64,000 nucleotides of DNA, taken from an uncultured Gammaproteobacteria bacterium. GTDB taxonomy: Bacteria; Patescibacteriota; Microgenomatia; Daviesbacterales; UBA10151. Made by a program: the position numbers and the translations under genes. Under the pieces are notes generated by a model, which saw only the letters and a program-made list of their open reading frames with translations, was not told the origin of the DNA and searched no databases. The stretch spans positions 71,184-135,183 of the forward strand of contig CAYMRP010000004.1 of NCBI GenBank assembly GCA_964392925.1, read 5' to 3'. Below are positions 16,501 through 37,376 of this stretch, one piece after another. Numbering within the stretch: the stretch's first letter is position 1; every line of letters begins with the position of its first letter.

Positions 16501-18274
16501 AAGTATGGATGTCCTCTTGGCTAAGCACTACTTAGCTCCCGTTGAAGCGGGTAAGTACGCCTTGCTTTCTGTCATTGGAAAAATCATTTTCTTTATGGGT
16601 GCATTAGCTAATCAGCTAGTGCTGCCTCTGGTTAGTCGAAATGAGGGCGCGGGTCGAAGTTCAGAAAAGTTTCTTGGCTGGGTATTTATTGGAACATTCT
16701 TAGTCACAAGTCTGGGCTTCATTTTCTGGGGTTTACTTGGAGGCTATACAGTACCTCTAGTTTTCGGAGAAAAAGCCAATGAAATAACACAATTCTTAGA
16801 AATATTCACTTTTACAATGATATGTTTCTCACTCTCAAGAGTATTAGTGTCTTATTTTCTGGCCAAAAAAGTTTACACCTTCCCTATTGTTTCATCTCTA
16901 ATTGTTATTCTCCAATTCGCTTTAATTTATTTTAATCATTCCGACTTAGGGTCAATAGTTTTTGATATGTTCTTGGTCGGAGTAATTGATTTACTTGCTA
17001 TGGCTATTCTTTATTTATTCTTGCCGTATGTAAAAATATTTGAAAATAATGTTAGCGATTTATTTGGATTATTTACCCGATCACTTCCTTTTAGTAAAGC
17101 TGAAGCTAACAAAAAAGTCCGAATTCTCATATTCAATTGGAGAGATATCAGCCATGTCTGGTCTGGTGGAGCAGAGAACTATATTCATGAATTAGCAAAA
17201 CTTTGGGTGGAACAGGGTTATCAGGTAACTATTTTTTCAGGTAACGATAACTTAAGTAAACGGTATGAAGTTTTAGACGGTGTACAAATAGTTAGAAGGG
17301 GTGGGTTCTATACAGTCTACTTCTGGGCAGTTTTATATTATATTTTCCGTTTCCGCGGTCTATATGATTTAGTTATAGATTCTGAAAACGGCATCCCTTT
17401 CTTTACGCCTCTATACGTTGGAAAAGCAAAGCTTTTATTAATTCATCATATCCACCAAGAAGTTTTCAGAAATCACCTTTCTTTGCCACTGGCAATTTTT
17501 GCATCATTCCTTGAAGGCAAACTTATGCCATTTATTTATAAAAATCAAAAAGTTATAACAGTTTCTGAATCTTCAAAGCAGGAAATCTTAAAACTGGGCA
17601 AGGATGTATTTGGTGCAATTGAAATTGTTAATCCTGGAATTCACACTCATAAATTCCTCACCCTAAAGAAAACAACAAATCCATCATTCTTATATCTCGG
17701 CCGACTGCAGCCTTACAAGAATATTGAAGTAGCAATTAAAGCATTCGCACAAGTTATTTCTAAATACCCTGATGCCACTTTAACAATTGCCGGTTTTGGT
17801 GAAAGTCTGATATCTCTTAAAAAACTAGCCGGCCAATTATCAATAGAAAAATCAGTTATTTTTACTGGCCGTGTCACTGATGAGAGGAAGTACGAGCTGT
17901 TATCAGAAAGCTGGGTTATGCTTCAGCCCTCAATGATTGAAGGCTGGGGGATCACTGTTATAGAAGCAAATGCGTCCGGAACTCCTGTAATCGCCTCAAA
18001 TGTTAACGGTCTTCGTGATTCAGTTGTCGATGGTAGAACCGGCATGTTAGTTAGACCAAAAGATGTTCAGATGTTTGCCCGGGTCATGACAGATCTTATT
18101 GAAAATAAAGAATTTAGAGATTACTTATCAGCTCAGGGAATTAAGTGGTCACAAAATTTTTCTTGGAAAAAACAGGCTGAAAAATATACTCACATTATAG
18201 AAGAGACCCTCTCTGATCATACCAAGAAAGGTATAAATTTAACAAAATCATGGAGTTTAAATTTTAGAAAGTAA
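13529..18274 (+). CDS. Giant multidomain glycosyltransferase: GT2 (polyprenyl-P sugar transferase-like) + processive GT2 synthase (QxxRW) + polytopic flippase-like TM block + C-terminal GT4
   Basis: aa 13-230: IIPVKNEE...FIDDNSSD...IDAD. aa 350-600: ILCPLYREADVL, YDAEDRPD, QRSRWLKG. aa 600-1090: at least 12 TM helices. aa 1100-1560: the GT4 EX7E block EGWGITVIEANASGTPVIAS. Confidence 0.7.
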   Translation: MNLGIDVMGLNMSNLDIIIPVKNEEGNILALVQRISQAMKLGNLSYKMIFIDDNSSDKTVSSLEILKKIYPIEIHPKKGKPGKAYSIIEGVDYATSDNIAMIDADLQYPPEVLPQMLKQLADSGVVIARRKTAQGSKLRRFVSKAFTNVFGGLLHNLNVDVQSGLKVFKKEVIEKIDPKKITPWTLDLSLVLVARDLGLGISEVDIEFDKRKNGNSKVSLVRTSIEIGKNALKLKFFRKRQFTIKPTKENSMIGGGIILKGKKYITHTTLEDKHLALKTFSTTQKFIIGSLVTAAIVGLITNPLAAILTIVAILSVIYFIDVVFNISVVLKSLHFPPEIKIPSEDIEAVDDSKLPTYTILCPLYREADVLPQFLESIEKLDWPKSKLDVILLLEEDDKETVAEISKKRLPYYVRALITPDSQPKTKPKACNYGLAHANGEYLVIYDAEDRPDPDQLKKAYLGFKNSGSKIVCLQAKLNYFNPHQNLLTRFFTAEYSLWFDVMLPGLQSINTVIPLGGTSNHFRTATLRDLEGWDPFNVTEDCDLGVRIFKKGWSTAIIDSITLEEANSNWANWIRQRSRWLKGYMQTYLVHMRNPFSFIAQNGWHAFVFQLIIGARISFMLINPILWLTTLSYFALYAYVGPAIEEIFPSAIFYMAVFSLLVGNFSYIYNYMIGALKREHYSLIKFIFLIPIYWLVASYAAGVAAYQLIVKPHYWEKTVHGLHIKKMTIESIKEEILPTLTADLIKPSDGRMSFYKKLSLPKALIPSAIYTLATFISGILNLGFNVFLGRVISFENLATLSLVSSFLYFSSVPQNSLLSTITHKVGYLEGKGKLTSALHFFKQATNRSLLISFIASAAWLFSIPFLMDYFQSDDIFPFLLFTPVWTLGTVFALMKGFLVGRLMLARVGFILFAETVFKFSIALIFIYFNLSHWAFVALPGSIVLSAILIILISGKLLKVPENAPQLKNEFSFPLKFYSASALSILAPIAFLSMDVLLAKHYLAPVEAGKYALLSVIGKIIFFMGALANQLVLPLVSRNEGAGRSSEKFLGWVFIGTFLVTSLGFIFWGLLGGYTVPLVFGEKANEITQFLEIFTFTMICFSLSRVLVSYFLAKKVYTFPIVSSLIVILQFALIYFNHSDLGSIVFDMFLVGVIDLLAMAILYLFLPYVKIFENNVSDLFGLFTRSLPFSKAEANKKVRILIFNWRDISHVWSGGAENYIHELAKLWVEQGYQVTIFSGNDNLSKRYEVLDGVQIVRRGGFYTVYFWAVLYYIFRFRGLYDLVIDSENGIPFFTPLYVGKAKLLLIHHIHQEVFRNHLSLPLAIFASFLEGKLMPFIYKNQKVITVSESSKQEILKLGKDVFGAIEIVNPGIHTHKFLTLKKTTNPSFLYLGRLQPYKNIEVAIKAFAQVISKYPDATLTIAGFGESLISLKKLAGQLSIEKSVIFTGRVTDERKYELLSESWVMLQPSMIEGWGITVIEANASGTPVIASNVNGLRDSVVDGRTGMLVRPKDVQMFARVMTDLIENKEFRDYLSAQGIKWSQNFSWKKQAEKYTHIIEETLSDHTKKGINLTKSWSLNFRK

Positions 18275-18276
18275 TT

Positions 18277-18840
18277 ATGGGAAAAACGATATCAATCATC
18301 TTACGAGTCTTTAAAAAAACACAAGCCAAAATATATACCAGATTTTGGAAACTATTTCTAAAATCCTTAGGGAAATACAGTGTTCTATATCCTGGGAGCA
18401 CCTTTGCCGGGGCATGTAATATCCAAATAGGTCATCACGTATTTATTCATCAGGGAGCACATTTATATACTGGCGGCAGCAAAATTACCATTGGGAACTA
18501 CGTACTCATTGGTAGAAACTGCTCAATTATCGCCGCCAACAGAGACTATGCGAATTGGACTCGGCCTATTTATTTTGGTACAGAATATGTGAAAAAACCT
18601 GTAGTTATAAAAGATGATGTTTGGATTGGTGAACGGGTAATTATTACCGCTGGTGTGACCGTTGGGCGAGGAGTTGTAATAGGTGCGGGTTCAATCGTAA
18701 CAAAAGATGTACCTGATTTCGCTATTGTTGCTGGTGTTCCTGCCAAGTTAATTAAATATCGATTTGATAAAAAAACTATTCAGCGAGCGATGCGGATAGA
18801 CTTGTCCAAATTCAAAGATATCAAAAAGGAGAAAAAATAA
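18277..18840 (+). CDS. Hexapeptide-repeat sugar O-acetyltransferase (left-handed beta-helix)
   Basis: IGERVIITAGVTVGRGVVIGAGSIVTKDVPDFAIVAGVPAKLI, as in the WbbJ/Mac-type family. Confidence 0.7.
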   Translation: MGKTISIILRVFKKTQAKIYTRFWKLFLKSLGKYSVLYPGSTFAGACNIQIGHHVFIHQGAHLYTGGSKITIGNYVLIGRNCSIIAANRDYANWTRPIYFGTEYVKKPVVIKDDVWIGERVIITAGVTVGRGVVIGAGSIVTKDVPDFAIVAGVPAKLIKYRFDKKTIQRAMRIDLSKFKDIKKEKK

Positions 18841-20198
18841 TGTCCGGAATAATTACTAGAATTTCTACTTTGGCTTCCAAAAACAAACTTATAACTACAG
18901 CTGGATTATTTGTGGCAGCCTCGATGTTGGCAAATATATTCAATTGGCTTTTAAGTATCCTAGCCGGCCGGGTTTTAGATACAGATGAATTTGCAGTCTA
19001 CGCTGTTTTTGTAAGCATATTAGGCATTCTGTCTGTTCCCTCAAACGCTTTAGCAACAACAATCAGCAGATACTATGCTTATTATTCGGGAAAAGAGAGC
19101 AGTTCAGATATTAAAGCTTTGATTAACTATTATAAAAAAGTAGCGCTGATTTTAGGAGTTCTTGGTGTCCTTATAGTCTATTTCACAAACGACTATATCA
19201 GAGCTTTTTTAAAGCTACCATCAGATAGCATGGTCGTTGGGTTTGCACCCGTTGCTTTCTTTCTTTTTACGGCGGCTTACTTCAGAGGAATTTTAAAAGG
19301 AAAACTAAAATTCGGCATAGTTGGACTGATGATGATAGTAGAAACATTTACTAAGCTGATACTTTTATTCTCCGGATACATGTTAAACCTTCCTGTTCTC
19401 GTAATAGCCATCATTTCCTTACCACTTTCTTGGTCGCTTGCATCTCTGATCGGGTTTTTAGCTACTTTTGAAAACGATGATAAGACTAGAATCACAAAGA
19501 AAACAGGAACCTTAGAATTTTCAAAATTAGATAGTCATTTTTTTATGACAAACGCTTTTTTTGCTAGTGTTGGTATGATGCTAATGAATAGTGTCGATAT
19601 TTTGCTAGTAAAACATTATTTTTCCGATTTTGAAGCTGGAACTTATGCTCTATTAAGCCTTTTCGGGAAAATTCTTTACTTTGGAGGTGGAAGCTTCATA
19701 GAATTATTTGTTCCACTCACCGCTAAGTCACATGCGAAAAATTCTAACAGTAGAAATCAATTTTTTAAACTTCTCGTATTGGTATCATCAGTAGCGATCC
19801 CCACACTAATTCTATTTCTTTCATTCCCAAACTTCACAACATACCTATTCTTAAAGGATAAAGGCTACCTAGTAATTCCGTATTTGGCACCTTATCTTAT
19901 TGCAACAACATTCCTGCTTTATACCAATTGTTTTAATGCATATAACACGGCTAAAAAACATTTCATCTCGACATACCTGATAACTGCGATGGCATTAGTC
20001 CAGGGAGCTTTGATTATGATATGGCACAAATCGCTTACTGATATTGTAAACATTGTTCTTTTCACTCAAGTTGTACTTTTTGTACTAGTTCTGTTTTATG
20101 AATTTTTTATATCTCCAAAACACTCTGAAGAAAAATCAACTTCGTCACTATGGACAAAATGGTCTCCAATTTGGGAAAGGACTAACAACAATGTCTAA
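18840..20198 (+). CDS. Polysaccharide biosynthesis protein / Wzx-like MOP flippase
   Basis: About 12 predicted TM helices, ~450 aa, located in the glycan locus. Start is coupled to the upstream stop. Confidence 0.55.
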   Translation: MSGIITRISTLASKNKLITTAGLFVAASMLANIFNWLLSILAGRVLDTDEFAVYAVFVSILGILSVPSNALATTISRYYAYYSGKESSSDIKALINYYKKVALILGVLGVLIVYFTNDYIRAFLKLPSDSMVVGFAPVAFFLFTAAYFRGILKGKLKFGIVGLMMIVETFTKLILLFSGYMLNLPVLVIAIISLPLSWSLASLIGFLATFENDDKTRITKKTGTLEFSKLDSHFFMTNAFFASVGMMLMNSVDILLVKHYFSDFEAGTYALLSLFGKILYFGGGSFIELFVPLTAKSHAKNSNSRNQFFKLLVLVSSVAIPTLILFLSFPNFTTYLFLKDKGYLVIPYLAPYLIATTFLLYTNCFNAYNTAKKHFISTYLITAMALVQGALIMIWHKSLTDIVNIVLFTQVVLFVLVLFYEFFISPKHSEEKSTSSLWTKWSPIWERTNNNV

Positions 20199-21195
20199 AA
20201 CTTTATTAGTACAACAGCAACAGCTCCACTTTTTCTTGGTGATGCTTATGTCGTTATTCAGAAAAAAACAAACAGCCATCTCGCCTCTCCCAGCTTTAGT
20301 AAATGGCTTCGCTCTAGAGAGGGAGCTAAATTCAGGTGAGTTAATAAAGCCTCACAGAATAGGAATATACAAAAATGATCGCGGACAAAAAGGTGTAGTT
20401 AAATGGTGGAGTGGAAACAAAAAAACATTTGCAGCTATATCATTAGAGAATGAACTTTCAATGGCCAAATTATTAGAGAAATTAAACCATCGGACAATTA
20501 AAAATCAAAAACCAAATTTGACTCAAATTGGAAGTGCACATGTTATCACAAGTAGAGTAAATGAAAAAACAGTTTTTATAATGTCTGAATTTCATGAGGG
20601 AAAACTTCTTAGAGAAGTAGCAAAGGCGATCCAGATTAAAGAGTATAAACGGGCACTAAACTATTTAAGTAGTCTATCTGGCAATTTAACCCAAATTGAA
20701 ATTGACGCGCTTCCCAAGAGAACATATATTGATTACCTATTGCTTTACCCAGCTTTGTTAAGTGTCTCTATTCTAAGACAACCGAGATATTTTTGGACAT
20801 TTATAAAAGGCCTGCCCCCAGTACTTTTCTCACTTACAAAAATTAGAAAACATCCTTTAACCATAGTGCATCGAGATCTTCACACAATGAATATTATCTA
20901 TTCTCCATCTCGCACAACCATCATCGATCTACAGCGTGCTGTTCTAACTTACGGGTTATATGAGCTGGTAACAACTTTAGCAGTTGAATGGGACAACAAG
21001 GAATTACGTCAGGCGATTCTAGATTATATTTACTCATCATATTCGAATTCTTTAACTATCTTTAGAGGACTAATGATTTATTTTGCAACTCATGCTCTGA
21101 CTGCCAATAACTTGCCGGAGTATTATCTTAGCCGCTACAAAGCAATGCTTAACTTCGCGGTCTATAAATATTCCAACTATTATTTAAAAACATGA
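20191..21195 (+). CDS. Kinase-like phosphotransferase (APH/choline-kinase fold)
   Basis: Catalytic-loop-like HRDLHTMNII followed by IIDLQ (compare HGDLHxxN...IDxE of APH/ChoK). The ATG at 20191 overlaps the upstream stop by 8 nt. Confidence 0.45.
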   Translation: MSKTLLVQQQQLHFFLVMLMSLFRKKQTAISPLPALVNGFALERELNSGELIKPHRIGIYKNDRGQKGVVKWWSGNKKTFAAISLENELSMAKLLEKLNHRTIKNQKPNLTQIGSAHVITSRVNEKTVFIMSEFHEGKLLREVAKAIQIKEYKRALNYLSSLSGNLTQIEIDALPKRTYIDYLLLYPALLSVSILRQPRYFWTFIKGLPPVLFSLTKIRKHPLTIVHRDLHTMNIIYSPSRTTIIDLQRAVLTYGLYELVTTLAVEWDNKELRQAILDYIYSSYSNSLTIFRGLMIYFATHALTANNLPEYYLSRYKAMLNFAVYKYSNYYLKT

Positions 21196-22097
21196 AAACA
21201 AAAAAAACATTAACTATTTGTATACCCGCATTTAATGAGGCAGAAAATCTAAAAAAACTGCTTCCATCCCTACTCGCTCAAAAAAGGTCAACTTACATTC
21301 TTTCTAAAATAATAGTAGCCTCTGATGCAAGCACTGACACTATATATAATGTGGTAAAGAAAATAGGAAGCAAAAAAATAAATGTTATACATGGAAAGGA
21401 GAGAAAAGGTGTCGCTTATCGTCAAAATCAATTATTAGAAAAATCGACCTCTGATATTGTAGTTCTTCTTAATGCTGACATCGCTGTTATCGATTTCAGA
21501 TATATTGAGAAATTAGTTGCTCCAATTATAAAAAATAAAGCCGATATGACTTCATCAGCTCTCATGGAAACAAGTCCCCGCACTTTTTTCGAAAAAGCCC
21601 TATATACCAGCATGCAAGCAAAAAAATATGCTTTCAATAAATTCAAAGACGGAAATAATGTCTATACCTGTCGCGGACCTGCAAGAGCTTTTAGTAAAAA
21701 TCTCTATAAAATAATTCGTTTCCCTTCTGGTATCGGGGAGGATGCATACTCCTACCTTTTTACAATCAAACGAGGCATGCGATTTATCGCTGTTAAAAAC
21801 GCTACAGTCTACTATTCCTTGCCCACAACCTTTAAAGATCACAAAAGACAAAGCCTGCGTTACCTGAGTTCTAAATCAAATTTTACTTCCAAATTTGGCG
21901 AAAAGTTTGTCAAAGATGAATACAACCTTCCCCTAAAATATATATTGGAAGCAGCTCTGTTCTACTCAATGTCGAATCCTATCTATATGCTTTGCTACTT
22001 CATGATCTTCATGCAAATAAATCTTAGATCTCTATTCAAAAACACCCAGAGTGAAACATGGGAGGTGGCAACAAGTTCAAAGTTGCTAAATGTATAA
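21192..22097 (+). CDS. Family 2 glycosyltransferase
   Basis: LTICIPAFNEAENL...VASDASTD GT-A N-terminus. ATGA overlap with the upstream gene. Confidence 0.65.
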   Translation: MKTKKTLTICIPAFNEAENLKKLLPSLLAQKRSTYILSKIIVASDASTDTIYNVVKKIGSKKINVIHGKERKGVAYRQNQLLEKSTSDIVVLLNADIAVIDFRYIEKLVAPIIKNKADMTSSALMETSPRTFFEKALYTSMQAKKYAFNKFKDGNNVYTCRGPARAFSKNLYKIIRFPSGIGEDAYSYLFTIKRGMRFIAVKNATVYYSLPTTFKDHKRQSLRYLSSKSNFTSKFGEKFVKDEYNLPLKYILEAALFYSMSNPIYMLCYFMIFMQINLRSLFKNTQSETWEVATSSKLLNV

Positions 22098-22905
22098 AAT
22101 GAAAACCAATCCAATATTTATCATTCGCCGTTATATATACAAAACTCTAAATCTGGTCGATCGCCTTTTTGACAACAATACTAAAGCATTTGTTCTTTGC
22201 TATCACGGAATTGACTCCAGTGACTGGAGGTTTAGTATTTCGCTTATCATGTTCAAAAAACAAATTAAGCATCTGAAAAATGAAGGCTACTCTTTCATAA
22301 CAACTAAAGACATATTGGAATATTGCCAAGGTAAAAAAATTCTACCTAAGCCTAGTGTTGCAATAACTTTCGATGATGGATACAAAAGCATGAAAATAGT
22401 CGCTAAATTTCTCAAAGAAGAAAAAATTGAACCAACCCTATTCCTCCTCTCTCAAACAGTAAAACCTAACTGGAAAGAAATTGGTAAAAAGGACAGTTTC
22501 TTAAATTTCTCTGAGATAAAATCCTTGGAAAGAAATGGCTGGTTAATGGGAAGTCACAGCAGCACACATGCTAACCTTTCAGAGCTATCAAAAGAAGAGT
22601 TGGTAAATGAAATCTCAAATTCTAAAAAAGTGTTAGAACAAAAGCTTAAGAAATCTATTTCAGATTTTGCATACCCAAGAGGTAAATACAATGATTCCGT
22701 ACTAAAGCAAGTAAAAAAAGCTGGATTTAAAGCGGGTTGGACTATGGACGATGGATTTTTGGGTCCACAAACAAACTTACTTCAAATACCCAGAATAGGA
22801 GTTGACAGAACCCATTCCTTAGAAGAGTTTAAAACGCTATTCAGCCCATCGGCAATATTAATGCGAAAACTTATAAAACAATCTCCCATAGGAGGATTAC
22901 TATGA
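22090..22905 (+). CDS. Polysaccharide deacetylase (CE4 / NodB homology domain)
   Basis: TFDDGYKS (motif 1), GSHSSTHANL (motif 2) and AYPRGKYN (motif 3). Confidence 0.7.
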   Translation: MYKMKTNPIFIIRRYIYKTLNLVDRLFDNNTKAFVLCYHGIDSSDWRFSISLIMFKKQIKHLKNEGYSFITTKDILEYCQGKKILPKPSVAITFDDGYKSMKIVAKFLKEEKIEPTLFLLSQTVKPNWKEIGKKDSFLNFSEIKSLERNGWLMGSHSSTHANLSELSKEELVNEISNSKKVLEQKLKKSISDFAYPRGKYNDSVLKQVKKAGFKAGWTMDDGFLGPQTNLLQIPRIGVDRTHSLEEFKTLFSPSAILMRKLIKQSPIGGLL

Positions 22906-24074
22906 AAAGTAAACAAATTGATGTTGTAGTGAAATATTTTCACCCTGTTGCGGCGGGTATAGAAACTAACATACTTAATACATATAGTGTGCTTGCCCAA
23001 ATGGGTTGGGATGTTCGTATTCACACATCTACAAACACTCACACGGGTAAGGACATACTTCCAAAATTCGAAATAATCAGAGGCTTAAAAGTATATCGCT
23101 ATAAACATCATTGGTATGGAATACAGCCTAATATAGACTATACGAAAACTTCTTTAGTTTGTATCCATAATTTTAATATCTTTCCTCATATTCAAATAAT
23201 GACTAAAGCGATACTGGGTAACCTAACGAAAACAAAGAAGTACGGGCTGGTCTTGACCCCTCACGGGGGTTACACTCCTGATTGGAACGTTTTTGGACCA
23301 ATATCAAAACAAATTAAGAAAATCTATCACAGAACCCTAGGTAAAATTCTTATTAATTTATCTTGTGATGCAATAAGAGCAGTCTCAGTATGGGAGAAAG
23401 ACCAAATAATTAGCCAGGGAGTTAATAAAGATATTATTCAAGTTATAACAAATGGGGTAGAGAATGAAGCATTTGTAGATTTAAATAAAGAAGCAAGTAA
23501 ACAGGTCAAGAATCTCGCTCACTCATTAGGCGACTATATAATCCAGGTTGGAAGAATATACCCAATTAAAAACTACGAAACGACAATTCGAGCTCTTAGT
23601 CTGATCCCAGGTAACCTAAAATATGCTATTACTGGAGCAGATTCAGAGAAATCCGGTTATTTTAATTCCCTCAAAAAATTAATTAAATCGTTGGGGCTTG
23701 AAGAAAGAGTTGTCTTCACGGGAGTCATTTCCGGGGTCGATAAATTCTATCTCATGAATAAAGCCCAGATGATGGTCCATATGGCACATTGGGAGAGTTT
23801 TTGTAATGTGGTTCACGAAGGAATGAGCCAAGGATTAGTCTGTATCGTGGCCAACAATACTGCACTTCCATATCTAATAAAAAATAATGTGAACGGATAC
23901 TGTGTTGAAACTTTTGACTATAAATCTTTAGCAAGCAAGATTGAATATGTCATAAAAAACAAAAACAAGAAAGAAATTATTCAAATCGAAAAGAATAATA
24001 AAAATATTGGTTCTCAGGAAACTTGGGGTGCAGTTGCTGAAAAAATGAATAACTTGTATCTAAAGCTAATATGA
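22902..24074 (+). CDS. Family 4 (GT-B) glycosyltransferase
   Basis: The C-terminal ESFCNVVHEGMSQGLVCIVANNTALPYLI block resembles the GT4 EX7E region. Confidence 0.6.
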   Translation: MKSKQIDVVVKYFHPVAAGIETNILNTYSVLAQMGWDVRIHTSTNTHTGKDILPKFEIIRGLKVYRYKHHWYGIQPNIDYTKTSLVCIHNFNIFPHIQIMTKAILGNLTKTKKYGLVLTPHGGYTPDWNVFGPISKQIKKIYHRTLGKILINLSCDAIRAVSVWEKDQIISQGVNKDIIQVITNGVENEAFVDLNKEASKQVKNLAHSLGDYIIQVGRIYPIKNYETTIRALSLIPGNLKYAITGADSEKSGYFNSLKKLIKSLGLEERVVFTGVISGVDKFYLMNKAQMMVHMAHWESFCNVVHEGMSQGLVCIVANNTALPYLIKNNVNGYCVETFDYKSLASKIEYVIKNKNKKEIIQIEKNNKNIGSQETWGAVAEKMNNLYLKLI

Positions 24075-24964
24075 AAAAGAAATTAAAAATATCAATCGCT
24101 ATACCTACTTACGAAGCCGGAGAAAGTCTTGTTGTCACACTCCGCTCTATCTACAATCAAACTTTTTATTCGGAAATAGATAAAATTTATGTGGCTATAG
24201 ATGGTAATAAGATAAAAAGCAAAATCATGAATAAAATAAAAAATCCAAAGCTGAGTCTACTTCACTATAAAAGAAGAGAAGGCCAAGCCCAAAGAATTAA
24301 TAATTTATTCAAAAAATCGAGTTCTGACATTTTGGTATTAACCAACGATGATATCTACTTAACCAATACCTTAGTCGAGGAAATTGTCCGCACTTATAAT
24401 GGTGACCTGATATTAGGAAATGTCCTAGGTATCAAGCCTCAGACATTCATTGAGAGACTCGTCTTGGTAGGAGCAAATATTAATAAAAGAGTCGCAGAAT
24501 CCTGGAATTCAGGCGACAATTATCTTTCCTGCAACGGCAGACTGATCATACTTTCTAAAAAATTATATAAAAGAATAGAGCTGCCGAAAACAATTTGGAA
24601 TAGTGATGCTTATATTTATTTCTATGCAAAAAAACTTAAATCTGAAGTTAATATCGGCAAAGAACTAAAAGCATATTTCAGAGCTCCTAGCAATCTTGAA
24701 GAGCATATTAAGCAGAGTGATAAGTTTCAAATGTCTCGGGAGGAAAATATGTCTTATTTTAAAGAGGATATATCTAAACAATACGACATACCTAAAGCTC
24801 TAAAATTTAAATCCCTCATTCTTGAATTCCTATTAAACCCAGTGATTACTTTTTGCTACGTACTTATTTATATCTATACAAGAACCCATAGAAAATACTA
24901 TAATATACAACATAAGGATTTTTGGGAAACTGATAAAACAACTAAGCAATTGAAAATATCATGA
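24071..24964 (+). CDS. Family 2 glycosyltransferase
   Basis: ISIAIPTYEAGESL...VAIDGNK GT-A N-terminus with a C-terminal TM helix. ATGA-coupled. Confidence 0.6.
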   Translation: MKKKLKISIAIPTYEAGESLVVTLRSIYNQTFYSEIDKIYVAIDGNKIKSKIMNKIKNPKLSLLHYKRREGQAQRINNLFKKSSSDILVLTNDDIYLTNTLVEEIVRTYNGDLILGNVLGIKPQTFIERLVLVGANINKRVAESWNSGDNYLSCNGRLIILSKKLYKRIELPKTIWNSDAYIYFYAKKLKSEVNIGKELKAYFRAPSNLEEHIKQSDKFQMSREENMSYFKEDISKQYDIPKALKFKSLILEFLLNPVITFCYVLIYIYTRTHRKYYNIQHKDFWETDKTTKQLKIS

Positions 24965-26511
24965 AAAAAATAATTACTTCAATACTATTAATAATCTTCA
25001 GTTTCGTAATTCTAACTCTTTCTATAAGGGGCATAGCTGGTAATCCTAGTGATGCTACCATTAACGAACCGTACTGGAAAGATAATGGTCCTTTAGAGCT
25101 CTCACCTGAAAGAGGTAAATTTGCTCTGACATATTCCTTCGTTGAGGATAATTCTGTTCATTTCTCGGTTCCAATAGCAAAATTCTCGACACCCGACTTA
25201 GGTTATAGTAAAGGTAATTATGTCTCACTTTTTGCACCAGGCGTAGCCTATATAACAATACCAGGATATATTATAGGTAAGGAATTTGGCTCTTCGCAAG
25301 TTGGCACTTATGCTGTAATAGCATTATTCGCGATAATGAACGCAGCCTTAATAAATTTAATCCTCCTAAGGCTTGGTGTAAGGAGTATTTTATCTGCTAT
25401 AAGTAGTATCATTTTTCTATTCGCGACACCGGCTTTCGCATATGCCGTATCTCTATATCAGCATCATATATCCACATTTATAATACTTCTAAGTGTATAT
25501 CTGCTGCAAAGATTTAAAGGAATTTGGCCACTGGTAATTATATGGTTTATCTTAGCCATATCTTTAGCAGTAGATAATCCAAATCTTTTTATGGTTTTCC
25601 CGATCGGGATATATGCATTAGGGCGAGTAGTTTACGCAAAAATTGATCAGAACAAGGTTAAGGTAGGAGTGAAGACATTAGCAGTTCTGACTTTAGTCAC
25701 TGCTTTAGTCCCTCTTTTACTTTTCGGGTGGTTCAACAAAATATCTTATGGCGACGCTATGAGACTTGGAGGTACTGTGGCATCGGTTAAAGAAATAGAT
25801 GAACAAGGTAAGCCAGCTGCTCCAAAAAATACAGGAACAACTAATGTTGCCCAGTTTATCAATCCTGATCAGCAAAAAAAGTCAGCTCTCAGATTCTTTA
25901 AGACCAGAAATATATTAAACGGCTTTTATATTCATTTTATTAGTCCTGACAGAGGCATTATATATTTTACACCGGTCATACTATTGGGTTTCATTGGAAT
26001 GTTTTATTTTTACAGGAAAGATTCGGGATTAACGTCTCTTCTTATTGCAATCATGGGAACAAATATCCTGCTGTATTCTATGTGGGGTGATGCATGGGGA
26101 GGATGGGCGTTTGGTTCGAGATATTTAGTACCTTCTTATGCAATACTCGCCATTTTCCTTGGTGTCGCCCTAAACAGGTTCCATCGGAATATTATATTTA
26201 TACTTGTGTTCTTATCTCTTTTTGTATATTCGGCAGCTATAAATACCGTAGGTGCTATTACTTCCAATAGAAATCCTCCTCAGGTTGAAGTTTTGGGTCT
26301 GGAGCAGCTAACAGGCAAACAAGAAAAATACACTTATGAAAGAAATTTTGACATGCTAGGCATTAATCAATCTAAATCTTTTGTATTTAATACTACAGTT
26401 AACAAATATTTCACTGCATGGGAATACTACTATTTCCTGACGGGGCTAATTATTCTCTCAGTGGCATTGCCATTAATTACACTTAACGCACTAGACTGGA
26501 GAAGAAAATGA
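24961..26511 (+). CDS. Polytopic membrane protein, putative GT-C fold glycosyltransferase (PMT/ArnT-like)
   Basis: About 11 TM helices and ~516 aa, inside the glycan locus. No soluble catalytic domain. ATGA-coupled. Confidence 0.4.
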   Translation: MKKIITSILLIIFSFVILTLSIRGIAGNPSDATINEPYWKDNGPLELSPERGKFALTYSFVEDNSVHFSVPIAKFSTPDLGYSKGNYVSLFAPGVAYITIPGYIIGKEFGSSQVGTYAVIALFAIMNAALINLILLRLGVRSILSAISSIIFLFATPAFAYAVSLYQHHISTFIILLSVYLLQRFKGIWPLVIIWFILAISLAVDNPNLFMVFPIGIYALGRVVYAKIDQNKVKVGVKTLAVLTLVTALVPLLLFGWFNKISYGDAMRLGGTVASVKEIDEQGKPAAPKNTGTTNVAQFINPDQQKKSALRFFKTRNILNGFYIHFISPDRGIIYFTPVILLGFIGMFYFYRKDSGLTSLLIAIMGTNILLYSMWGDAWGGWAFGSRYLVPSYAILAIFLGVALNRFHRNIIFILVFLSLFVYSAAINTVGAITSNRNPPQVEVLGLEQLTGKQEKYTYERNFDMLGINQSKSFVFNTTVNKYFTAWEYYYFLTGLIILSVALPLITLNALDWRRK

Positions 26512-28166
26512 TAAAAATAAATAAGTTAGCTGAAATAGAAATAGAGCTTAATGTCTCTTTACTAGACAAAATTAAAGATTTTTTCTCTAAGTATGGACTC
26601 TACTTCATAATTTTAATACTTTCAGGCATTTCCGTAGGCGGATTTCTATACTTTCTTGAAAACGGATTAGGGCTCGCATACAACGATGCCAGATCCCATT
26701 TAAATATTGGCCGAAGAGTAGTAGAAGGGTTAAAGCCAGGTTTCGCCCAAATTGGTAGTGTCTGGTTACCTCTACCTCACGTTCTAATGATTCCTACAAT
26801 CTGGAATGATTTTATGTGGCACACAGGTTTATCCGGTGCAATTGTCTCGATGTCCTCCTTTATTGGAACAGGTGTATTAGTCTATAAGTTCCTTCAAAAA
26901 CTAGGAGCAGGATTAATGGGTAGATGGATGGGAGTTCTTGTGCTGGTAGCAAACATTAATATTCTATATTTGCAATCTACCGCAATGACTGAACTATTAT
27001 TACTTTTCACAATGACCGCCGCAGCCTACGACCTAATGATCTGGCACCAATCAAGCAGAATTATTAATCTGGTTAAAGCCGCATTTTGGATAATGTTATC
27101 AACTCTCGTCAGATATGATGGTTGGTTCCTATTTTTCGTATCAGTTATTCTTATAGTCATTAATCTTATGCGGGTGGGTAGTTTTAAAATAAAGGATCTC
27201 CCTGCTAAATATTTCAAAATAGAGGGAGTCGTCATTGCTTTCTGTACGTTAGCAGGTCTTGGAGTTTTTCTATGGTTACTATGGAACCTATTAATTTTTA
27301 AAGATCCGTTTTTCTTTGCCTTTGGCCCATACTCAGCTCATGCCCAGCAACAGCAATTAGAAAGTGCGGGGGAGTTAATTACCAAACATGATTGGTTTCT
27401 TTCAGCTAAGTTTTATACATATGCTCTAGCCTATAATTCCGGAGCTTTCTCAGCACTTCTTGGGATATTTGGGTTAGTAGCTATTTGGTTCGATAAGAAG
27501 CTATTAACACCGGTAAAATTTGCAGTGTTTGCTTTAGTTGCACCACTTTTATTCAATATATTAGCATTATACCTTGGGCATTCAGTTCTATTTATCCAAG
27601 GACTTTCTGGTGATGTCTGGTTCAATGTCCGATACGGCATTATGATGATGCCATCAATAGCAATCTTTATTGGTTTTCTTATCGATAGGGTTAAGAATCT
27701 TAGAGCAGTCCTTATCGGGCTTTTACTACTTACGATTTTCTTCCAGTTCCAAAACTTTGATGCAGTTACTATTGATGATGCCAGAGTTGGATCTTCTCAG
27801 AAAAATGTCAGCGAAGTATCAGATTGGCTATCTCAAAATGCTAAAGATAGGGATGGGTTCATTTTAATCTCAGCAGCCTCACACGACGCTATTATTTTTT
27901 CATCTGGATTACCAATGAAAAAATTTATCCATGAAGGTACCGGCAGATATTGGGAATCCGCAACAACAAATCCTGAAAGATGGGCAAGATGGATTATTGC
28001 CAGAACTCATGACAATAACGATTCTACGTGGAGAGCTGTATCGCAAACTCCAGATATTAATAACTATATTCTTGTTAAGTCTTACCCGTTTGCAGATATC
28101 TACGAACTAAAGCCAGAGTTCCTCCCTAACCTCAATACAAAACCTATCTTAGGCAAGCAAAAGTAG
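26508..28166 (+). CDS. Polytopic membrane protein with a C-terminal extracytoplasmic domain, putative GT-C fold glycosyltransferase
   Basis: About 11 TM helices. YNDARSH in the first loop is a candidate DE/DD-type motif. C-terminal ~150-aa soluble domain. ATGA-coupled. Confidence 0.4.
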   Translation: MIKINKLAEIEIELNVSLLDKIKDFFSKYGLYFIILILSGISVGGFLYFLENGLGLAYNDARSHLNIGRRVVEGLKPGFAQIGSVWLPLPHVLMIPTIWNDFMWHTGLSGAIVSMSSFIGTGVLVYKFLQKLGAGLMGRWMGVLVLVANINILYLQSTAMTELLLLFTMTAAAYDLMIWHQSSRIINLVKAAFWIMLSTLVRYDGWFLFFVSVILIVINLMRVGSFKIKDLPAKYFKIEGVVIAFCTLAGLGVFLWLLWNLLIFKDPFFFAFGPYSAHAQQQQLESAGELITKHDWFLSAKFYTYALAYNSGAFSALLGIFGLVAIWFDKKLLTPVKFAVFALVAPLLFNILALYLGHSVLFIQGLSGDVWFNVRYGIMMMPSIAIFIGFLIDRVKNLRAVLIGLLLLTIFFQFQNFDAVTIDDARVGSSQKNVSEVSDWLSQNAKDRDGFILISAASHDAIIFSSGLPMKKFIHEGTGRYWESATTNPERWARWIIARTHDNNDSTWRAVSQTPDINNYILVKSYPFADIYELKPEFLPNLNTKPILGKQK

Positions 28167-28175
28167 TATTCTAAT

Positions 28176-29186
28176 ATGATCAAAAAAGTATTAATAGTCT
28201 CAGCTATAACAATAGTCATATTCTTGTTATTCTCCTACTTCAACTCAAAAATTGAAGAATATCATAAAGAATCTGCTCTAAAAAGAATTCATCTGTGGGA
28301 TTTTCGTTCGGTTGATACTGTAAAATATTCAAGAGATCTCGCACGCGAAATGATGGAGGATCAAGAATTCGATACCATTATTAGTAAACAAGTTAGTGAC
28401 ATAGCATTGCTAGGAGCTTCACATATTGCCATAAGTACTCCATACGATGCCGAATTCCTACCTTTCCTGAAAAGATGGGTTACCGTTGCAAGAGAGAAGA
28501 ATCTTAAAGTCTGGTTTAGAGGTAATTTTTCAGGCTGGGAAAATTGGTTTGGCTACGAAAGAATGACCAGAGAAGAACATAAAATATTACTCAAAGAGTT
28601 TATTGAAAATAATCCTGGTCTATTTGAAGATGGAGACATTTTTACCTCATGTCCTGAATGCGAGAACGGTGGACCAGGGGACCCGAGGCATAATGGTGAT
28701 GTAATAGGACATCGTAAATTCCTAATTGATGAATACAATATTTCTAAAGAATCATTTGCCAATATTGATAAGCAAGTTCAGCCTGGTTTTTATTCTATGA
28801 ATTATGATGTCGCAACTCTAGTTATGGATGAGGATACAACAAATAAGCTCGGAAACTTAGTAGTTATTGATCATTACATCAAAGATCCTGAAAAACTTGC
28901 CAAAGACGCAAGAAAGATAGCTGAGAAATCAAAAGGTGAAGTTGTTCTGGGTGAATTTGGTGCACCGATTCCTGACATACATGGAGCAATGACAGATAAG
29001 GCACAGGCTGACTGGATTAACCAAGCTTTGCAAGAAGTGAGTCTTGTTGAAGAAGTAACTGGTGTAAATTACTGGACTAATGTTGGAGGTTCTACCGAAT
29101 TGTGGAATTCAGGAGGTACTCCCAAAGCAGCTGTAGATATGATAAGAGAATATTATAAAAAAACAAAACTAATATCTCCACGTTGA
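28176..29186 (+). CDS. Membrane-anchored putative glycoside hydrolase (TIM-barrel, GH5/GH26-like)
   Basis: N-terminal TM helix. VLGEFGAPI carries a GEFG nucleophile-type motif. Aromatic-rich WFRGNFSGWENWFGYE strand. Confidence 0.3.
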   Translation: MIKKVLIVSAITIVIFLLFSYFNSKIEEYHKESALKRIHLWDFRSVDTVKYSRDLAREMMEDQEFDTIISKQVSDIALLGASHIAISTPYDAEFLPFLKRWVTVAREKNLKVWFRGNFSGWENWFGYERMTREEHKILLKEFIENNPGLFEDGDIFTSCPECENGGPGDPRHNGDVIGHRKFLIDEYNISKESFANIDKQVQPGFYSMNYDVATLVMDEDTTNKLGNLVVIDHYIKDPEKLAKDARKIAEKSKGEVVLGEFGAPIPDIHGAMTDKAQADWINQALQEVSLVEEVTGVNYWTNVGGSTELWNSGGTPKAAVDMIREYYKKTKLISPR

Positions 29187-29266
29187 TTTAAACCCATAGT
29201 CGTGATACAATAACCCATAATGTTTTTTATTATGATAAAAAACATGCGAAATTTTTAATAAAACTT

Positions 29267-29905
29267 ATGAAGATAGTGTTCGTTATTTTTCTCGTTATTT
29301 TCAGCCTATTAATTAATTCAGGTCAAGCTCTCGCGTACGAAATACCTACCTTTACCTCCTGTGTTAACCCTCAAGGAGATCTCAAAGCTAACTATGAAAC
29401 TGGTACTCACGGAATTGCTGGCCGTCCAGGATTATTTGAAGGAAAAGACACCGTCTATGCAGTCGCGAGTAACGCCATTACTCAATGCTTTTGCCCAACC
29501 GATGGTAATGGTGTTCAGACAAATTTCTGGAAAATACCCGCTTTGACTCAATCTAAAATTAGTGTTCTTGAGGCTCAGGGTTGGATTTATATTCCCAACG
29601 GAGCATTGTGGGGATTAGAAAACGCTCCGTACCTAGCAAAAAATTCAGACTATAGCTGTAAATCATCAGGTGGAAGTAACGATAGTTCAGGTAGTTCTGG
29701 AGGTAGTAATGGATCTGGATCATCAGGCAGTAATTCTGGAGCTGGGGGCTCCTCATCTCTTTCAGTATCGGGCGGAGTAGGGCAGGTTTTAGGTCTCGCC
29801 TCAACCGGAAATACAATTTTTGTCTTAGGCACTGCTCTAACTTCAGGAATATCCCTGCTTCTGGGCCTTATTCTAAAAAGAAGAACAACAAATTTATCCA
29901 AGTAA
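29267..29905 (+). CDS. Secreted Gly/Ser-rich surface protein with a C-terminal LAXTG-type cell-wall sorting signal (putative sortase substrate)
   Basis: Signal peptide MKIVFVIFLVIFSLLINSGQALA. C-terminus ...LASTGN + hydrophobic TIFVLGTALTSGISLLLGLIL + KRRTT tail. Confidence 0.55.
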   Translation: MKIVFVIFLVIFSLLINSGQALAYEIPTFTSCVNPQGDLKANYETGTHGIAGRPGLFEGKDTVYAVASNAITQCFCPTDGNGVQTNFWKIPALTQSKISVLEAQGWIYIPNGALWGLENAPYLAKNSDYSCKSSGGSNDSSGSSGGSNGSGSSGSNSGAGGSSSLSVSGGVGQVLGLASTGNTIFVLGTALTSGISLLLGLILKRRTTNLSK

Positions 29906-29906
29906 A

Positions 29907-30485
29907 ATGGCAAAATATAATGAGGGTACAAAACTAACTCAGTCTGTTTTTTTAGGTAACCTATTACTTATTTTTGGTCTAATAAGTTTTATAGCCTTCA
30001 GCTACCTGATATTCCAAAGATATAATCCTCAAAACTTAGCTTTTGATTTACCTGAAGCAATCGCCGTCTCTGATAATGAAAATTCTGAACTTCAGCCTAT
30101 TGGTTTAAGAATAAATTCTATAGATTTAGCTCTCTCAATTACTCCTGCGGAAATTAAAAATAATAATTGGCAGGCTTTTCCTAACGCAATTTCCTATCTT
30201 AAAACTACGGTTGTTCCAGGAGCCAAAGGTAATAGCGTTCTGTATGGTCATAACTGGCCAAATCTATTAGGTGATCTAAAAAAAGTAAAACCCGGCGACA
30301 ATATTAATATAATTTACTCAGACAACTCATCAAAAGATTTTGAAATCGAATTTATAACAAAAGTACTTCCTTCCGAAACCTCTATCCTTAAAGATTCACC
30401 AGACAATAGGGTAACTCTTTACACCTGTACCGGATTTCTCGACTCAGAAAGACTAGTGGTTATCGCAAAACTTCTTAATTCTTAA
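29907..30485 (+). CDS. Sortase (transpeptidase), membrane-anchored
   Basis: N-terminal TM helix. His in SVLYGHNWPNLLG, catalytic Cys in RVTLYTCTGF (TLxTC), and the conserved Arg in RLVVIA. Confidence 0.8.
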   Translation: MAKYNEGTKLTQSVFLGNLLLIFGLISFIAFSYLIFQRYNPQNLAFDLPEAIAVSDNENSELQPIGLRINSIDLALSITPAEIKNNNWQAFPNAISYLKTTVVPGAKGNSVLYGHNWPNLLGDLKKVKPGDNINIIYSDNSSKDFEIEFITKVLPSETSILKDSPDNRVTLYTCTGFLDSERLVVIAKLLNS

Positions 30486-30732
30486 TTAGTCCTGTTAGAA
30501 TAGCTCTGTGGCCAAAGCAATAATTAGATTTATCAAAAATGACACAGTTTTTTGGCTATTCTTTATAGTCCTTTGTTTTATTATGCTGACATTTATTATG
30601 AAGAAAGAGGATATAAAAGTAACTATAACTTTGAGTGAGCCTTACGATAATAAAGTGATCACATTATTTGGTCGTTGACTGTGACTGGTCCGCTTGCCAA
30701 AAAAGAATGATAGTGGTATAAAACCTGTTGGG

Positions 30733-35379: not shown

Positions 35380-35508
35380 TATCGAAAAAATAAAGAAACT
35401 CCGAAGTTTGTGAAACTCAAACACTGTGCCGCAACCGTAATAGCCGGGTCGAAGGTTTCTTTGAAAGTGAATAAGTCTCACGAGCAATGAGGGTGATATT
35501 GAAAGTTA

Positions 35509-35540
35509 CCTTCTCCAAAAGAGAAGGTTTTTTTATTTTC
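35509..35540 (+). terminator. Rho-independent terminator downstream of nrdJ
   Basis: ccttctc-caaaa-gagaagg followed by ttttttt atttt. Confidence 0.7.
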
Positions 35541-35600
35541 AAGCGAAAGCGAGAAAACAAAGTTTCTTTAACCCCAATTCTCCAAAGACTCCAAAATAAT

Positions 35601-36776
35601 ATGATTCAAGATTTAGAACAATATAGAAATAGGCGTGAAGTAACGAAGGCACCAATAATTAGCGGTGCGAATGCTTTAAAGTTGCAACCGCTTGTTGAAA
35701 TGACACCTCAGCTTAGGGTTGTTACTGAGCTTCCTGCTCCGATTCAAATAGACTCGTTCTTGAAAAGAAAAGTAGAGCCTCTTGCTGAAATCCCTAAAAC
35801 TCCAGAAGTCTTGGCAAGGCAACAGATAATAAATAATACAGCTGAAGCAGAGCCAGAGCGATTTATAGAAAGAGAAATTGACCCAGATAAGCCCTGGAGC
35901 GCCTTTGGACAAGTCATGTTTATAAAAGAGCATATTATTGATGGAAAATCAGTAAAGAAAATCGCTGCGATAAGTATGGCTTATCCAGGTGGGGTAGGAA
36001 CTAGAATGGCAGGGGAAGTGTTGAGTGAAACCGTCGGAATTAACCAATCTGAATTTGTAAGCTGGAAAGGTCAATCTGAAGGGGGGATTATAGCCGCAAG
36101 CAAAGAAGTTCAAAATATTACTGATCAATTTGGACTTATGGACGACTTTATTCAAAACTCCGGTTCAGTAATTAAAAACCGTCATGCTCAAGGTGAGCAC
36201 GAGGTGGTCCAGCACTTCTTCGGCCTGCAAGACACAAGGAAAGAATTTCTAGATACTGTTAAAGAAGATGCAGCTGCAATTTTAGAAAACCCTAATTTCA
36301 CGAGTAGGTCAGCGTTTGATGAGCGTTACAAGGACAAAGGTATTTACTTAATTGAAGGTATAGTGGTCGATGGAGTATGGGAAGGTGGAGATCCTCAGGG
36401 AAAAAGAATGCGTCTTGTTGATATGGCCGCAGATGAAGCACATCTAAAATGGTTGCAATGGGCTGAAAAAACAGCAAGCGAGATGAAAGGTGACGGAGTA
36501 ATTGTTGATGCAGAAGATACTGAGACAGTAACAGACTGCGGTGGAAATAAAGGATGCTCTGAATTCTTTGAAAAAATGGAAGGCAGCACATCTGAACCAA
36601 CCATCGATCTGAGCCGCTACTCTGTATCCACTGGAATAGCAGGCTCTATTGCTGCATCCGCATATTCAAAATCTCAGATTTCTGGAGGCGGAGCTCCAGC
36701 TTATGATAGTGAAAATTGCTCATCCTGCGGCAAAGACCGCTATAAAGAAGATGGCTGCAAATGCTCTACTAATTAA
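35601..36776 (+). CDS. Hypothetical protein with a Cys-rich C-terminus
   Basis: No family recognised. CGGNKGCSEFF and CSSCGKDRYKEDGCKC clusters. The tracked start at 35487 would span the nrdJ terminator hairpin, so the ATG at 35601 is preferred. Confidence 0.4.
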   Translation: MIQDLEQYRNRREVTKAPIISGANALKLQPLVEMTPQLRVVTELPAPIQIDSFLKRKVEPLAEIPKTPEVLARQQIINNTAEAEPERFIEREIDPDKPWSAFGQVMFIKEHIIDGKSVKKIAAISMAYPGGVGTRMAGEVLSETVGINQSEFVSWKGQSEGGIIAASKEVQNITDQFGLMDDFIQNSGSVIKNRHAQGEHEVVQHFFGLQDTRKEFLDTVKEDAAAILENPNFTSRSAFDERYKDKGIYLIEGIVVDGVWEGGDPQGKRMRLVDMAADEAHLKWLQWAEKTASEMKGDGVIVDAEDTETVTDCGGNKGCSEFFEKMEGSTSEPTIDLSRYSVSTGIAGSIAASAYSKSQISGGGAPAYDSENCSSCGKDRYKEDGCKCSTN

Positions 36777-36778
36777 TA

Positions 36779-37333: not shown

Positions 37334-37376
37334 TTTTTAGTTTGCACAATAAATAACTATAAGATATAATATCATA

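Follow-up and report, generated by a model that had tools for sequence, protein, structure and literature searches.

Class E sortases recognise the pentapeptide LAxTG and are characterised by a tyrosine in the β3/β4 loop, a roughly 21-residue insertion between β6 and β7 and a functional cytoplasmic tail (Kattke et al., PMC5148588). The tyrosine, Y229 in SrtE1 of Streptomyces coelicolor, is equivalent to F92 of Clostridium perfringens SrtD (CpSrtD) and A104 of Staphylococcus aureus SrtA (SaSrtA), and it was proposed on steric grounds that a bulky residue in this place disfavours proline (PMC5148588). Sortases are also common in bacteria of the candidate phyla radiation (CPR) and near-ubiquitous in Microgenomates (PMC6744442), and in our reading of the literature a description of the cargo, signal or gene cassette of these CPR enzymes was not found; a CPR preprint on a 'Pam pilus' that was followed as a lead turned out to be unrelated to sortases. 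Here we have analysed a stretch of 64,000 nucleotides of the contig CAYMRP010000004.1 (assembly GCA_964392925.1, forward strand), termed the window, to which all coordinates refer unless a different locus is named. It contains a gene for a 212-residue protein carrying LASTG close to its C-terminus, which we refer to as the cargo, followed by a gene for a sortase. We think it probable that, in a bacterium of the Microgenomates (CPR), both form a unit in which the sortase is dedicated to this cargo, and which has its own promoter and makes up the 3' terminus of a conserved envelope-glycan cassette.

The cargo, its sorting signal and its pairing with a sortase

The two genes and the regions of their products are the following.

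29267-29905, forward strand: cargo open reading frame (ORF), SUB, 212 residues, read directly
Cargo residues 1-23: signal peptide-like N-terminus, MKIVFVIFLVIFSLLINSGQALA followed by YE, ending in A-L-A and assigned from hydropathy and the A-x-A site
Cargo residues about 24-131: conserved 4-Cys α/β globular domain of ~108 residues
Cargo residues 132-173: disordered stalk rich in Gly, Ser and Asn
Cargo residues 174-182: extended sorting signal VLGLASTGN
Cargo residues 177-181, nucleotides 29795-29809, forward strand: LASTG pentapeptide, codons read directly
Cargo residues 183-203: hydrophobic, transmembrane segment of 21 residues
Cargo residues 204-212: basic tail KRRTTNLSK
29907-30485, forward strand: sortase ORF, 192 residues, Pfam PF04203
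Sortase residues 10-38: N-terminal transmembrane anchor, a helix of residues 9-39 in the model
Sortase residues 36-46, nucleotides 30012-30044: juxtamembrane motif with R38, P41 and F46
Sortase up to about residue 63: segment of low confidence in the AlphaFold model
Sortase, ~126 residues: catalytic β-barrel with H115 (30249-30251), C174 (30426-30428) and R182 (30450-30452)

The cargo displays the tripartite layout of a sortase substrate, with a signal peptide at its beginning and a pentapeptide, a hydrophobic segment and a basic tail near its C-terminus, and the ORF confirms in this respect the first-pass annotation, which had described a protein of 212 residues with signal peptide, Gly/Ser stalk, LASTG, hydrophobic segment and KRRTT tail. 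Its start codon is preceded by the features described below, and its stop codon is separated from the ATG of the sortase by a single nucleotide (29906) instead of the two base pairs given there. In an AlphaFold model, residues 25-131 form a β-sheet with two short helices at a predicted local distance difference test (pLDDT) score >95, whereas the stalk scores <55. Residues that are invariant in 50 aligned homologues include C32, C74, C76, C131, H48, D61, Q73, Q84 and W115, and the four cysteines among them suggest that the domain would contain two disulfides. Searches for relatives of the cargo gave no match to Pfam or NCBIfam (the latter at E up to 0.1), a best Foldseek hit of the domain in the PDB at E = 0.25 and an empty profile search of PDB sequences, and public records label the protein as "hypothetical protein".

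The homologues of the cargo number in the hundreds, at least 120 of which share 39% identity or more with it. When 50 of them are aligned, L177, A178, T180 and G181 are invariant and surround a variable x position, which is occupied by S, A, T, F, N, D, V, P or G. Among 249 distinct family members, LAxTG is present in 238, and alanine is found at the second position of the motif in 243 of the 245 members where a motif is recognisable. The conservation includes the flanking residues V-L-G and N, as illustrated by the family logo [VI]-L-G-L-A-x-T-G-[N>D,G,S], and a median of 28 residues follows the motif. LASTG is thus a conserved motif rather than part of an ordinary transmembrane anchor, as had been anticipated. 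The stalks of family members (e.g. L002, L018, P0264) often hold one or two degenerate copies of the signal (VLG[AI]ST...) ahead of the true VLGLAxTG, which look like a duplication of the signal region.

The pairing of cargo and sortase was investigated from both directions. The cargo family is found in at least 147 GTDB species genomes, and a cargo-first scan with one genome per GTDB species retrieved 80 loci (L-numbered), 73 of which contain a sortase directly downstream on the same strand, the remainder being composed of one in-frame fusion, three contigs that end too early and three loci without a sortase of this family. Among the titles of these records, the informative ones refer to Levy-, Roizman-, Davies-, Woese-, Gottesman-, Chisholm- and Amesbacteria and WWE3, all Microgenomates, in agreement with the earlier assignment of the host to the CPR. 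Many metagenome-assembled genomes among third-party annotation (TPA) records carry a typical Microgenomates locus under the title 'uncultured Gammaproteobacteria/Pseudomonadales bacterium' (L001, L002, L008 and others), and these titles look like placeholders or mislabels. The converse, sortase-first scan was carried out in metagenomes, seeded on sortase motifs, and gave 380 relatives, from which 80 loci were kept. The cargo family is located directly upstream in 61 of these and 15 leave no room for it, while of the remaining three, two encode an unrelated cargo with the signal ILGLATTGD or VLGLATTGS.

A particularly telling case is offered by two loci where the same cargo domain ends in S-LPKTG-A instead of LGLAxTGN (L057, 5923-7084, and L058, 449-1611). 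The sortase downstream is a different, more canonical enzyme (LFSHS...LMTCTPPG...KR), which passes the TIGR01076 model and reaches 72-78 bits with that of class C, and at the specificity position defined by SaSrtA A104 and SrtE1 Y229 it contains an alanine in place of the leucine that is invariant in enzymes of the LAxTG type. As judged from these sequences, motif and enzyme were swapped together, and the two loci constitute a natural experiment.

These comparative data already refute, at the level of sequence, a coincidence in which LASTG would belong to an ordinary membrane anchor while the sortase next to it acted on other proteins, and we attach practically no weight to it: the invariant positions of the motif flank a variable x, motif and enzyme type covary, a LAxTG cargo resides directly upstream of the sortase in 63 of the 64 informative sortase-first loci, which are those with room, and one locus encodes both proteins as an in-frame fusion. 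The near-obligate adjacency in both directions, together with the covariation, instead upholds the earlier proposal of a genuine sortase-substrate pair. The fusion (L067, 3922-5058, = P0296) is a 378-residue ORF whose topology appears workable, with the transmembrane segment and basic tail of the cargo being followed by the transmembrane segment of the sortase; it could be real or reflect a sequencing error.

The signal is also rare outside this pair. Within the window, the cargo is the sole protein with a sorting-signal-like tail, and in ~0.86 Mb of sequence from 80 related loci a single LAxTG tail was found besides those of the cargo family. This tail, in L012, adjoins its own sortase: a second pair (8450-9938) is located 2 kb downstream of the first, in which an unrelated protein of 314 residues ends in LAATG, a transmembrane segment and a basic tail, and the second enzyme, although divergent (E = 2e-21 to the sortase of the window), also has a leucine at the specificity position. 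A profile of the tail alone, which regains 102 of 140 known members at library-scale E-values, gave 65 matches when 1.84 billion representative proteins were searched; the cargo domain is present in about 50, and the others are mostly fragments or a few proteins with Pro/Thr linkers. Locus DNA and representative proteins thus point to a sortase that is dedicated to one main cargo.

Several observations weigh against a dedicated unit as we describe it. Three loci (L057, L059 and L066) contain the cargo with no sortase of this family within 6 kb; the first holds the other sortase type described above and the latter two hold none within that distance. The tail profile was trained on the cargo family, and cargos with divergent transmembrane segments or tails could therefore be missed. 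The curated NCBIfam model of LPXTG anchors does not recognise the cargo tail, which is expected since the motif lacks proline. Finally, the tight linkage to glycosyltransferases, discussed below, leaves room for a more unusual acceptor or a coupled modification.

Fold and class of the sortase

The second gene is a sortase with a membrane anchor and, in its predicted model, an eight-stranded β-barrel fold. Its sequence matches Pfam PF04203 (MEROPS C60) at E = 4.6e-19 with 68.8 bits, against a cut-off of 26.6, over model positions 1-124/125, and scores 28.5 bits with TIGR01076, which is below the cut-off of 39.35. The AlphaFold model has a pLDDT of 85, and its comparison to the PDB by Foldseek returns sortases at E about 1e-11 with a probability of 1.00. 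H115, C174 (contained in TLYTC) and R182 do not vary among 50 homologues, and the former two align with H120 and C184 of SaSrtA (the numbering of the SaSrtA sequence used in this alignment checked out). The triad of His, TLxTC Cys and Arg that had been assigned on first inspection therefore holds on alignment. Directly following the transmembrane helix, in a region of low model confidence, we observed a juxtamembrane motif Q-R-x-N-P-x-x-L-x-F, of which R38, P41 and F46 are nearly invariant and which could be a lid-like or membrane-interface element.

The first-pass annotation had regarded this enzyme as a class E, housekeeping-type sortase. Such an enzyme would, as in Streptomyces and Actinomyces, anchor many LAxTG proteins, with its adjacency to the cargo arising by chance. 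This view can draw on the motif itself, since LAxTG is the signal of class E (PMC5148588), and on the report of a single sortase in one published Microgenomates genome (PMC7143001), from which it follows that the enzyme of the window may be the only sortase of its cell. However, none of the NCBIfam class models is passed by the enzyme, which scores 39.6 bits for class F, 35.0 for C, 28.1 for D, 26.6 for GN and 26.5 for E, with cut-offs of 158-166 (160 for the class E model NF033747 and for class C, 158.25 for the class GN model TIGR03784), so that F, C and D score as well as or better than E. Its best relatives of known structure are Bacillus anthracis SrtA, class C pilus sortases and CpSrtD. 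The best sequence match is B. anthracis SrtA (PDB 2KW8; E = 1.6e-8 for the sequence alone and 3.3e-12 for the profile), and structures of classes A, C and D match the family profile at 1e-10 to 1e-12, compared to E = 1.7e-3 for the class E enzyme SrtA of Actinomyces oris (5utt); S. coelicolor SrtE1 (5cuw) is not among the matches listed in this search of PDB sequences. Likewise, the top 50 Foldseek matches of the model comprise class C, D and A structures and not a single one of class E.

The hallmarks of class E are equally absent. The position of its tyrosine is occupied by an invariant leucine (L98) in alignments to CpSrtD and SaSrtA, where the alignment of the loop is somewhat uncertain, and most members have an aromatic residue just before it (Y97). 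In the model, β6 (142-153) and β7 (167-175) are connected by 13 residues, without the ~21-residue insertion, and only ~9 residues precede the transmembrane anchor, which thus leaves no space for a long cytoplasmic tail. When also considering that the gene is nearly always found directly after one cargo, in an adjacency that is close to obligate both ways, and that the signal is rare elsewhere in the locus DNA and representative proteins scanned, neither the class nor the housekeeping role can be retained, and an assignment to the class E housekeeping enzymes, which on the sequence evidence is already largely refuted, appears very unlikely to us.

It thus appears that the enzyme is a distinct, minimal sortase lineage, whose preference for alanine at the second position of the motif would be independent of actinobacterial class E. 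The leucine at the position of the tyrosine conforms to the steric idea of the published work (PMC5148588) with a different residue, and an independent origin of the specificity for alanine is accordingly the simplest reading. We would advance only as a tentative and rather uncertain extension that these proteins represent a CPR-specific sortase class, in which VLGLAxTGN would be recognised in an alanine-specific manner through a structural solution other than that of class E, namely a bulky leucine at the A104/Y229 position of a minimal catalytic domain, and whose sole cargo would be a disulfide-bonded end-piece with a new fold of the Microgenomates envelope-glycan cassette, for example a wall-anchored carrier or organiser of glycans or a main attachment protein.

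The glycan cassette, the promoter and a proposed route of anchoring

The genomic context of the pair is defined by the following features.

13529..24964, forward strand: envelope-polysaccharide cluster with, by Pfam, a GT2/GT2/GT4 fusion, a hexapeptide transferase, a Polysacc_synt flippase, a kinase-like protein, GT2, a polysaccharide deacetylase, GT4 and GT2 (GT, glycosyltransferase)
24961..26511, forward strand: A516, multi-pass membrane protein and putative GT-C-type glycosyltransferase, first of the five cassette genes
26508..28166, forward strand: B552, multi-pass membrane protein and second GT-C-like putative glycosyltransferase, the most conserved cassette gene
28176..29186, forward strand: C336, N-terminally membrane-anchored protein with weak similarity to a glycosyl-hydrolase core, third cassette gene
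29183-29211, forward strand: promoter-like element of the cargo-sortase unit (TTGATT, 17 nucleotides, TG-n-TACAAT), from a consensus scan
29220-29245, forward strand: AT-only hairpin with perfect arms of 11 nucleotides and a loop of 4, at the 5' end of the predicted transcript
30508..30678, forward strand: small ORF of 56 residues with a single transmembrane segment, directly after the sortase

The cassette is collinear in the order A516-B552-C336-cargo-sortase, with the pair at its 3' end. In the 55 loci whose upstream sequence extends over 4.8 kb or more, C336 is found upstream of the cargo in 43, B552 in 42, A516 in 35 and all three in 33. The three genes are absent upstream in 10 of the 55, and 5 of those 10 contain homologues of other glycan genes of the cluster at other places in the locus, in several cases immediately behind the sortase, which implies that the linkage survives rearrangement. 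In many other loci, too, the pair is bordered by homologues of the polysaccharide cluster, which in some cases lie behind the sortase rather than upstream. The first gene of the cluster (13529-18274) encodes a polypeptide of 1581 residues with two GT2 and one GT4 domains, and in several other loci its homologue follows the sortase directly rather than heading the cluster.

The assignment of the three upstream proteins is based on weak similarities, and none of them has sequence relatives in the PDB. A516 contains about 10 hydrophobic segments and matches NF047440 (LA_3751/LA_3752 putative glycosyltransferase) at 2.3e-9, as do 30 of 30 homologues (best 1.2e-20), all far below the cut-off of 200 bits, while Pfam PMT_2 is matched by 2 of 30. 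B552, with a mean column identity of 64%, is conserved far above its neighbours and contains the long invariant block YNDARSHL.I.RRVVEGLKPG. The protein of the window has no Pfam match, 15 of 30 homologues match NF047440 (best 1.1e-8, far below the 200-bit cut-off) and one of 30 PMT_2, and its relationship to A516 in a profile-profile comparison is weak (hhalign E = 6e-4, probability 28%). C336 has a single, N-terminal hydrophobic segment; Pfam Glyco_hydro_cc is weakly matched by 5 of 30 homologues (best 6.3e-4), longer variants carry a CarboxypepD_reg insert and CPECENGG and GEFG-type motifs are invariant.

Despite its place in the cassette, the cargo-sortase pair is predicted to have its own conserved promoter. 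The -35 hexamer of the promoter-like element overlaps with the stop codon of C336, and its sequence is kept in L163, L164, L001 and L002, where the rest of the spacer diverges. Of 134 loci, 114 have a comparable element in the stretch of about 150 nucleotides that precedes the cargo gene, compared to 8 of 102 control coding windows. In many loci, the extended -10 element (TGnTAtAAT) is often directly followed by a recurrent CC(C/T)ATAA, whose counterpart in the window (29206-29222) is AACCCATAAT.

Further downstream in the spacer lies the hairpin, which had initially been described as a perfect 26-bp palindrome and in fact consists of two complementary arms of 11 nucleotides (29220-29230, ATGTTTTTTAT, and 29235-29245, ATAAAAAACAT) around the non-palindromic centre TATG. 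Its occurrence exceeds expectation, with one such hairpin in the 64 kb of the window compared to 0.1 expected from first-order Markov simulations and P about 0.001 upon shuffling of the 80-nucleotide spacer, and its predicted stability is weak (-7.5 kcal/mol, z = -2.3). Since it is missing in relatives with 76% identical cargo, it is probably no essential part of the system, and we have discarded it as a conserved regulatory element.

The features of both proteins suggest a route of anchoring that, in its catalysis and acceptor, follows by analogy the well-established mechanism of sortases. The cargo would be exported by the Sec pathway, with its signal peptide cut after Ala23, and its ~108-residue domain would fold outside the membrane, in which the protein would initially be held by its C-terminal transmembrane segment and KRRTT tail. 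The sortase, anchored by its N-terminal helix with the catalytic domain outside, would then recognise the extended signal VLGLA-x-TG-N, and Cys174 would cut between Thr180 and Gly181 to give a thioacyl intermediate. An amine of a peptidoglycan precursor would resolve this intermediate, and the domain would thereby become covalently linked to the wall through a disordered spacer of ~45 residues. Transpeptidation on the sorting signal is in this scheme a prediction, which is supported indirectly by the covariation of motif and enzyme, and the role of the cargo domain is similarly conjectural.

A different outcome would be obtained if the enzyme acted as a class C-like sortase that polymerises the cargo head-to-tail via a lysine into a covalent fibre. 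Many class C pilus sortases are among the best Foldseek matches, and the enzyme gene adjoins its substrate gene as in pilus loci. The cargo, however, has no invariant lysine, which argues against a pilin: none of its 22 invariant columns is Lys, and in place of K89 and K125 several members have E, N, Q, F, L or I. In pilins, the motif directly follows the last domain, whereas the two are separated by the disordered spacer of ~45 residues in the cargo. The sortase lacks the DP[FWY] lid motif and a C-terminal transmembrane segment and, at 35 bits, stays far from the class C cut-off of 160, and each locus holds one cargo gene and one sortase. In light of the missing lysine and lid, we have rejected the pilus hypothesis, for which only a very small likelihood remains.

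More serious, if still improbable, is a fate of the intermediate other than plain attachment to the wall, be it a glycoprotein route in which the glycan of the cassette would be assembled on the cargo ahead of its anchoring, transfer to a product of the GT-C-like enzymes such as a glycolipid or glycopolymer, or simple proteolytic release. The collinearity of the pair with two GT-C-like enzymes and a hydrolase-like protein, and the glycan genes retained elsewhere in cassette-less loci, would be in line with such a route, for which the glycosylated sortase substrate of the GspA/LcpA/SrtA system in A. oris provides a precedent (PMC6381275). On the other hand, the stalk is not consistently rich in Ser and Thr, with Asp/Lys-rich stalks in some cassette-linked loci and an S+T content of 0.29 vs 0.33 that is the same with and without the cassette. 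O-glycosylation of the stalk by the adjoining GT-C enzymes is consequently unsupported and was kept as a minor rival only. The predicted promoter of the pair and the 10 of 55 loci without the three cassette genes upstream equally speak against it, and we know of no sortase that uses a non-peptide acceptor. Attachment to peptidoglycan thus stays the preferred route.

In accordance with this preference, the window encodes a PBP5-type DD-carboxypeptidase and a VanW protein, besides a DsbA-like oxidoreductase, and CPR organisms contain essentially complete peptidoglycan pathways (PMC7143001). In combination with the large envelope-glycan cluster, these properties do not support the suggestion that the cell would be wall-minimal.

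The small ORF that follows the sortase has intact counterparts of 56-89% amino acid identity at the same position in eight loci (L161, L162, L164, L002, L081, L082, L001 and L083; tblastn) and was not seen in more distant ones; the source annotation of L161 contains no such gene. It is a possible accessory gene, whose membership in the system is uncertain.

The comparison with L161, a 542-kb wastewater contig, has revealed peculiarities of the records. The two sequences are 100% identical for at least 10.2 kb (19266-29475 of the window), up to nucleotide 29475, and from 29476, at about codon 70 of the cargo, identity falls abruptly to about 85-95% and stays low through the sortase and beyond, which in terms of the sequences would reflect either a strain recombination breakpoint or an assembly chimera in one of the records. 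Further downstream, the region 35200-37700 aligns poorly with the otherwise syntenic contig (35-64% column identity); it contains an ORF of 429 residues without Pfam match (35487-36776), in place of which L161 has a gene for 525 residues.

Relation to described sortase systems

Collectively, our analysis has named a target for the sortases of Microgenomates, one conserved surface protein found in at least 147 species-level genomes, and it has defined the signal; the enzymes as such were known before (PMC6744442), and what is added is the evidence that this one belongs to a lineage of its own rather than to class E. The cargo offers a concrete and abundant-looking surface protein to be sought in uncultured, host-dependent ultrasmall bacteria. 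The enzyme would constitute an independent natural route to alanine-specific recognition with a built-in comparison between LPKTG/Ala and LAxTG/Leu pairs, and this route has practical relevance to orthogonal sortase ligation tools. The cassette, finally, establishes a testable genetic link between protein anchoring and glycan genes in CPR envelopes.

With respect to the size of its catalytic core, the enzyme is comparable to B. anthracis SrtA (2KW8), which is however a class A housekeeping enzyme that recognises LPxTG and shares 28% identity with it. The class GN ('marine') sortases of TIGR03784, which we take to be enzymes found outside the classical Gram-positive phyla, in Proteobacteria, and to act on a single dedicated, adjacent target, resemble the present system in this organisation. 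They differ in motif, cargo and hosts, and the enzyme of the window reaches 26.6 bits against the cut-off of 158 for this class.

The dedication to an adjacent substrate is shared with SrtB/IsdC of class B, Bacillus SrtC of class D and SrtB/AbpA of oral streptococci (PMC4974636), where likewise one enzyme is co-encoded with one or few cargos that carry a non-canonical signal. In these systems, the motifs are different (NPQTN, LPNTA and others), and the enzyme of the window passes neither the class B nor the class D model and has a smaller catalytic domain.

In A. oris, GspA, LcpA and SrtA (PMC6381275) provide another instance of a sortase-anchored surface protein that is tied to envelope glycan machinery. 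There, glycosylation depends on an LCP phosphotransferase as the acting enzyme, and anchoring on a housekeeping sortase of class E that is encoded at an unlinked site, whereas the neighbours in the window are predicted to be GT-C-like, and the composition of the stalk gives no support for a glycosylation of the cargo as found in GspA.

The small ORF behind the sortase recalls SafA, a small membrane protein linked to actinobacterial sortases (PMC9282373), although it lacks the FPW motif.

A resemblance in function is found in the class E enzymes SrtE1 and SrtE2 of S. coelicolor and SrtA of A. oris, which have in common with the enzyme of the window the recognition of LAxTG, the transpeptidase fold with its His-Cys-Arg residues and the N-terminal membrane anchor. 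In contrast to these, the enzyme of the window fails the class E model, matches the class weakly in sequence and fold, and combines a leucine at the equivalent of Y229 with the absence of both the long β6/β7 insertion and the long cytoplasmic tail. Whereas class E sortases are housekeeping enzymes of Actinobacteria, it appears dedicated to its cargo within an operon of a CPR host, and the signal it would recognise, VLGLAxTGN, looks longer.

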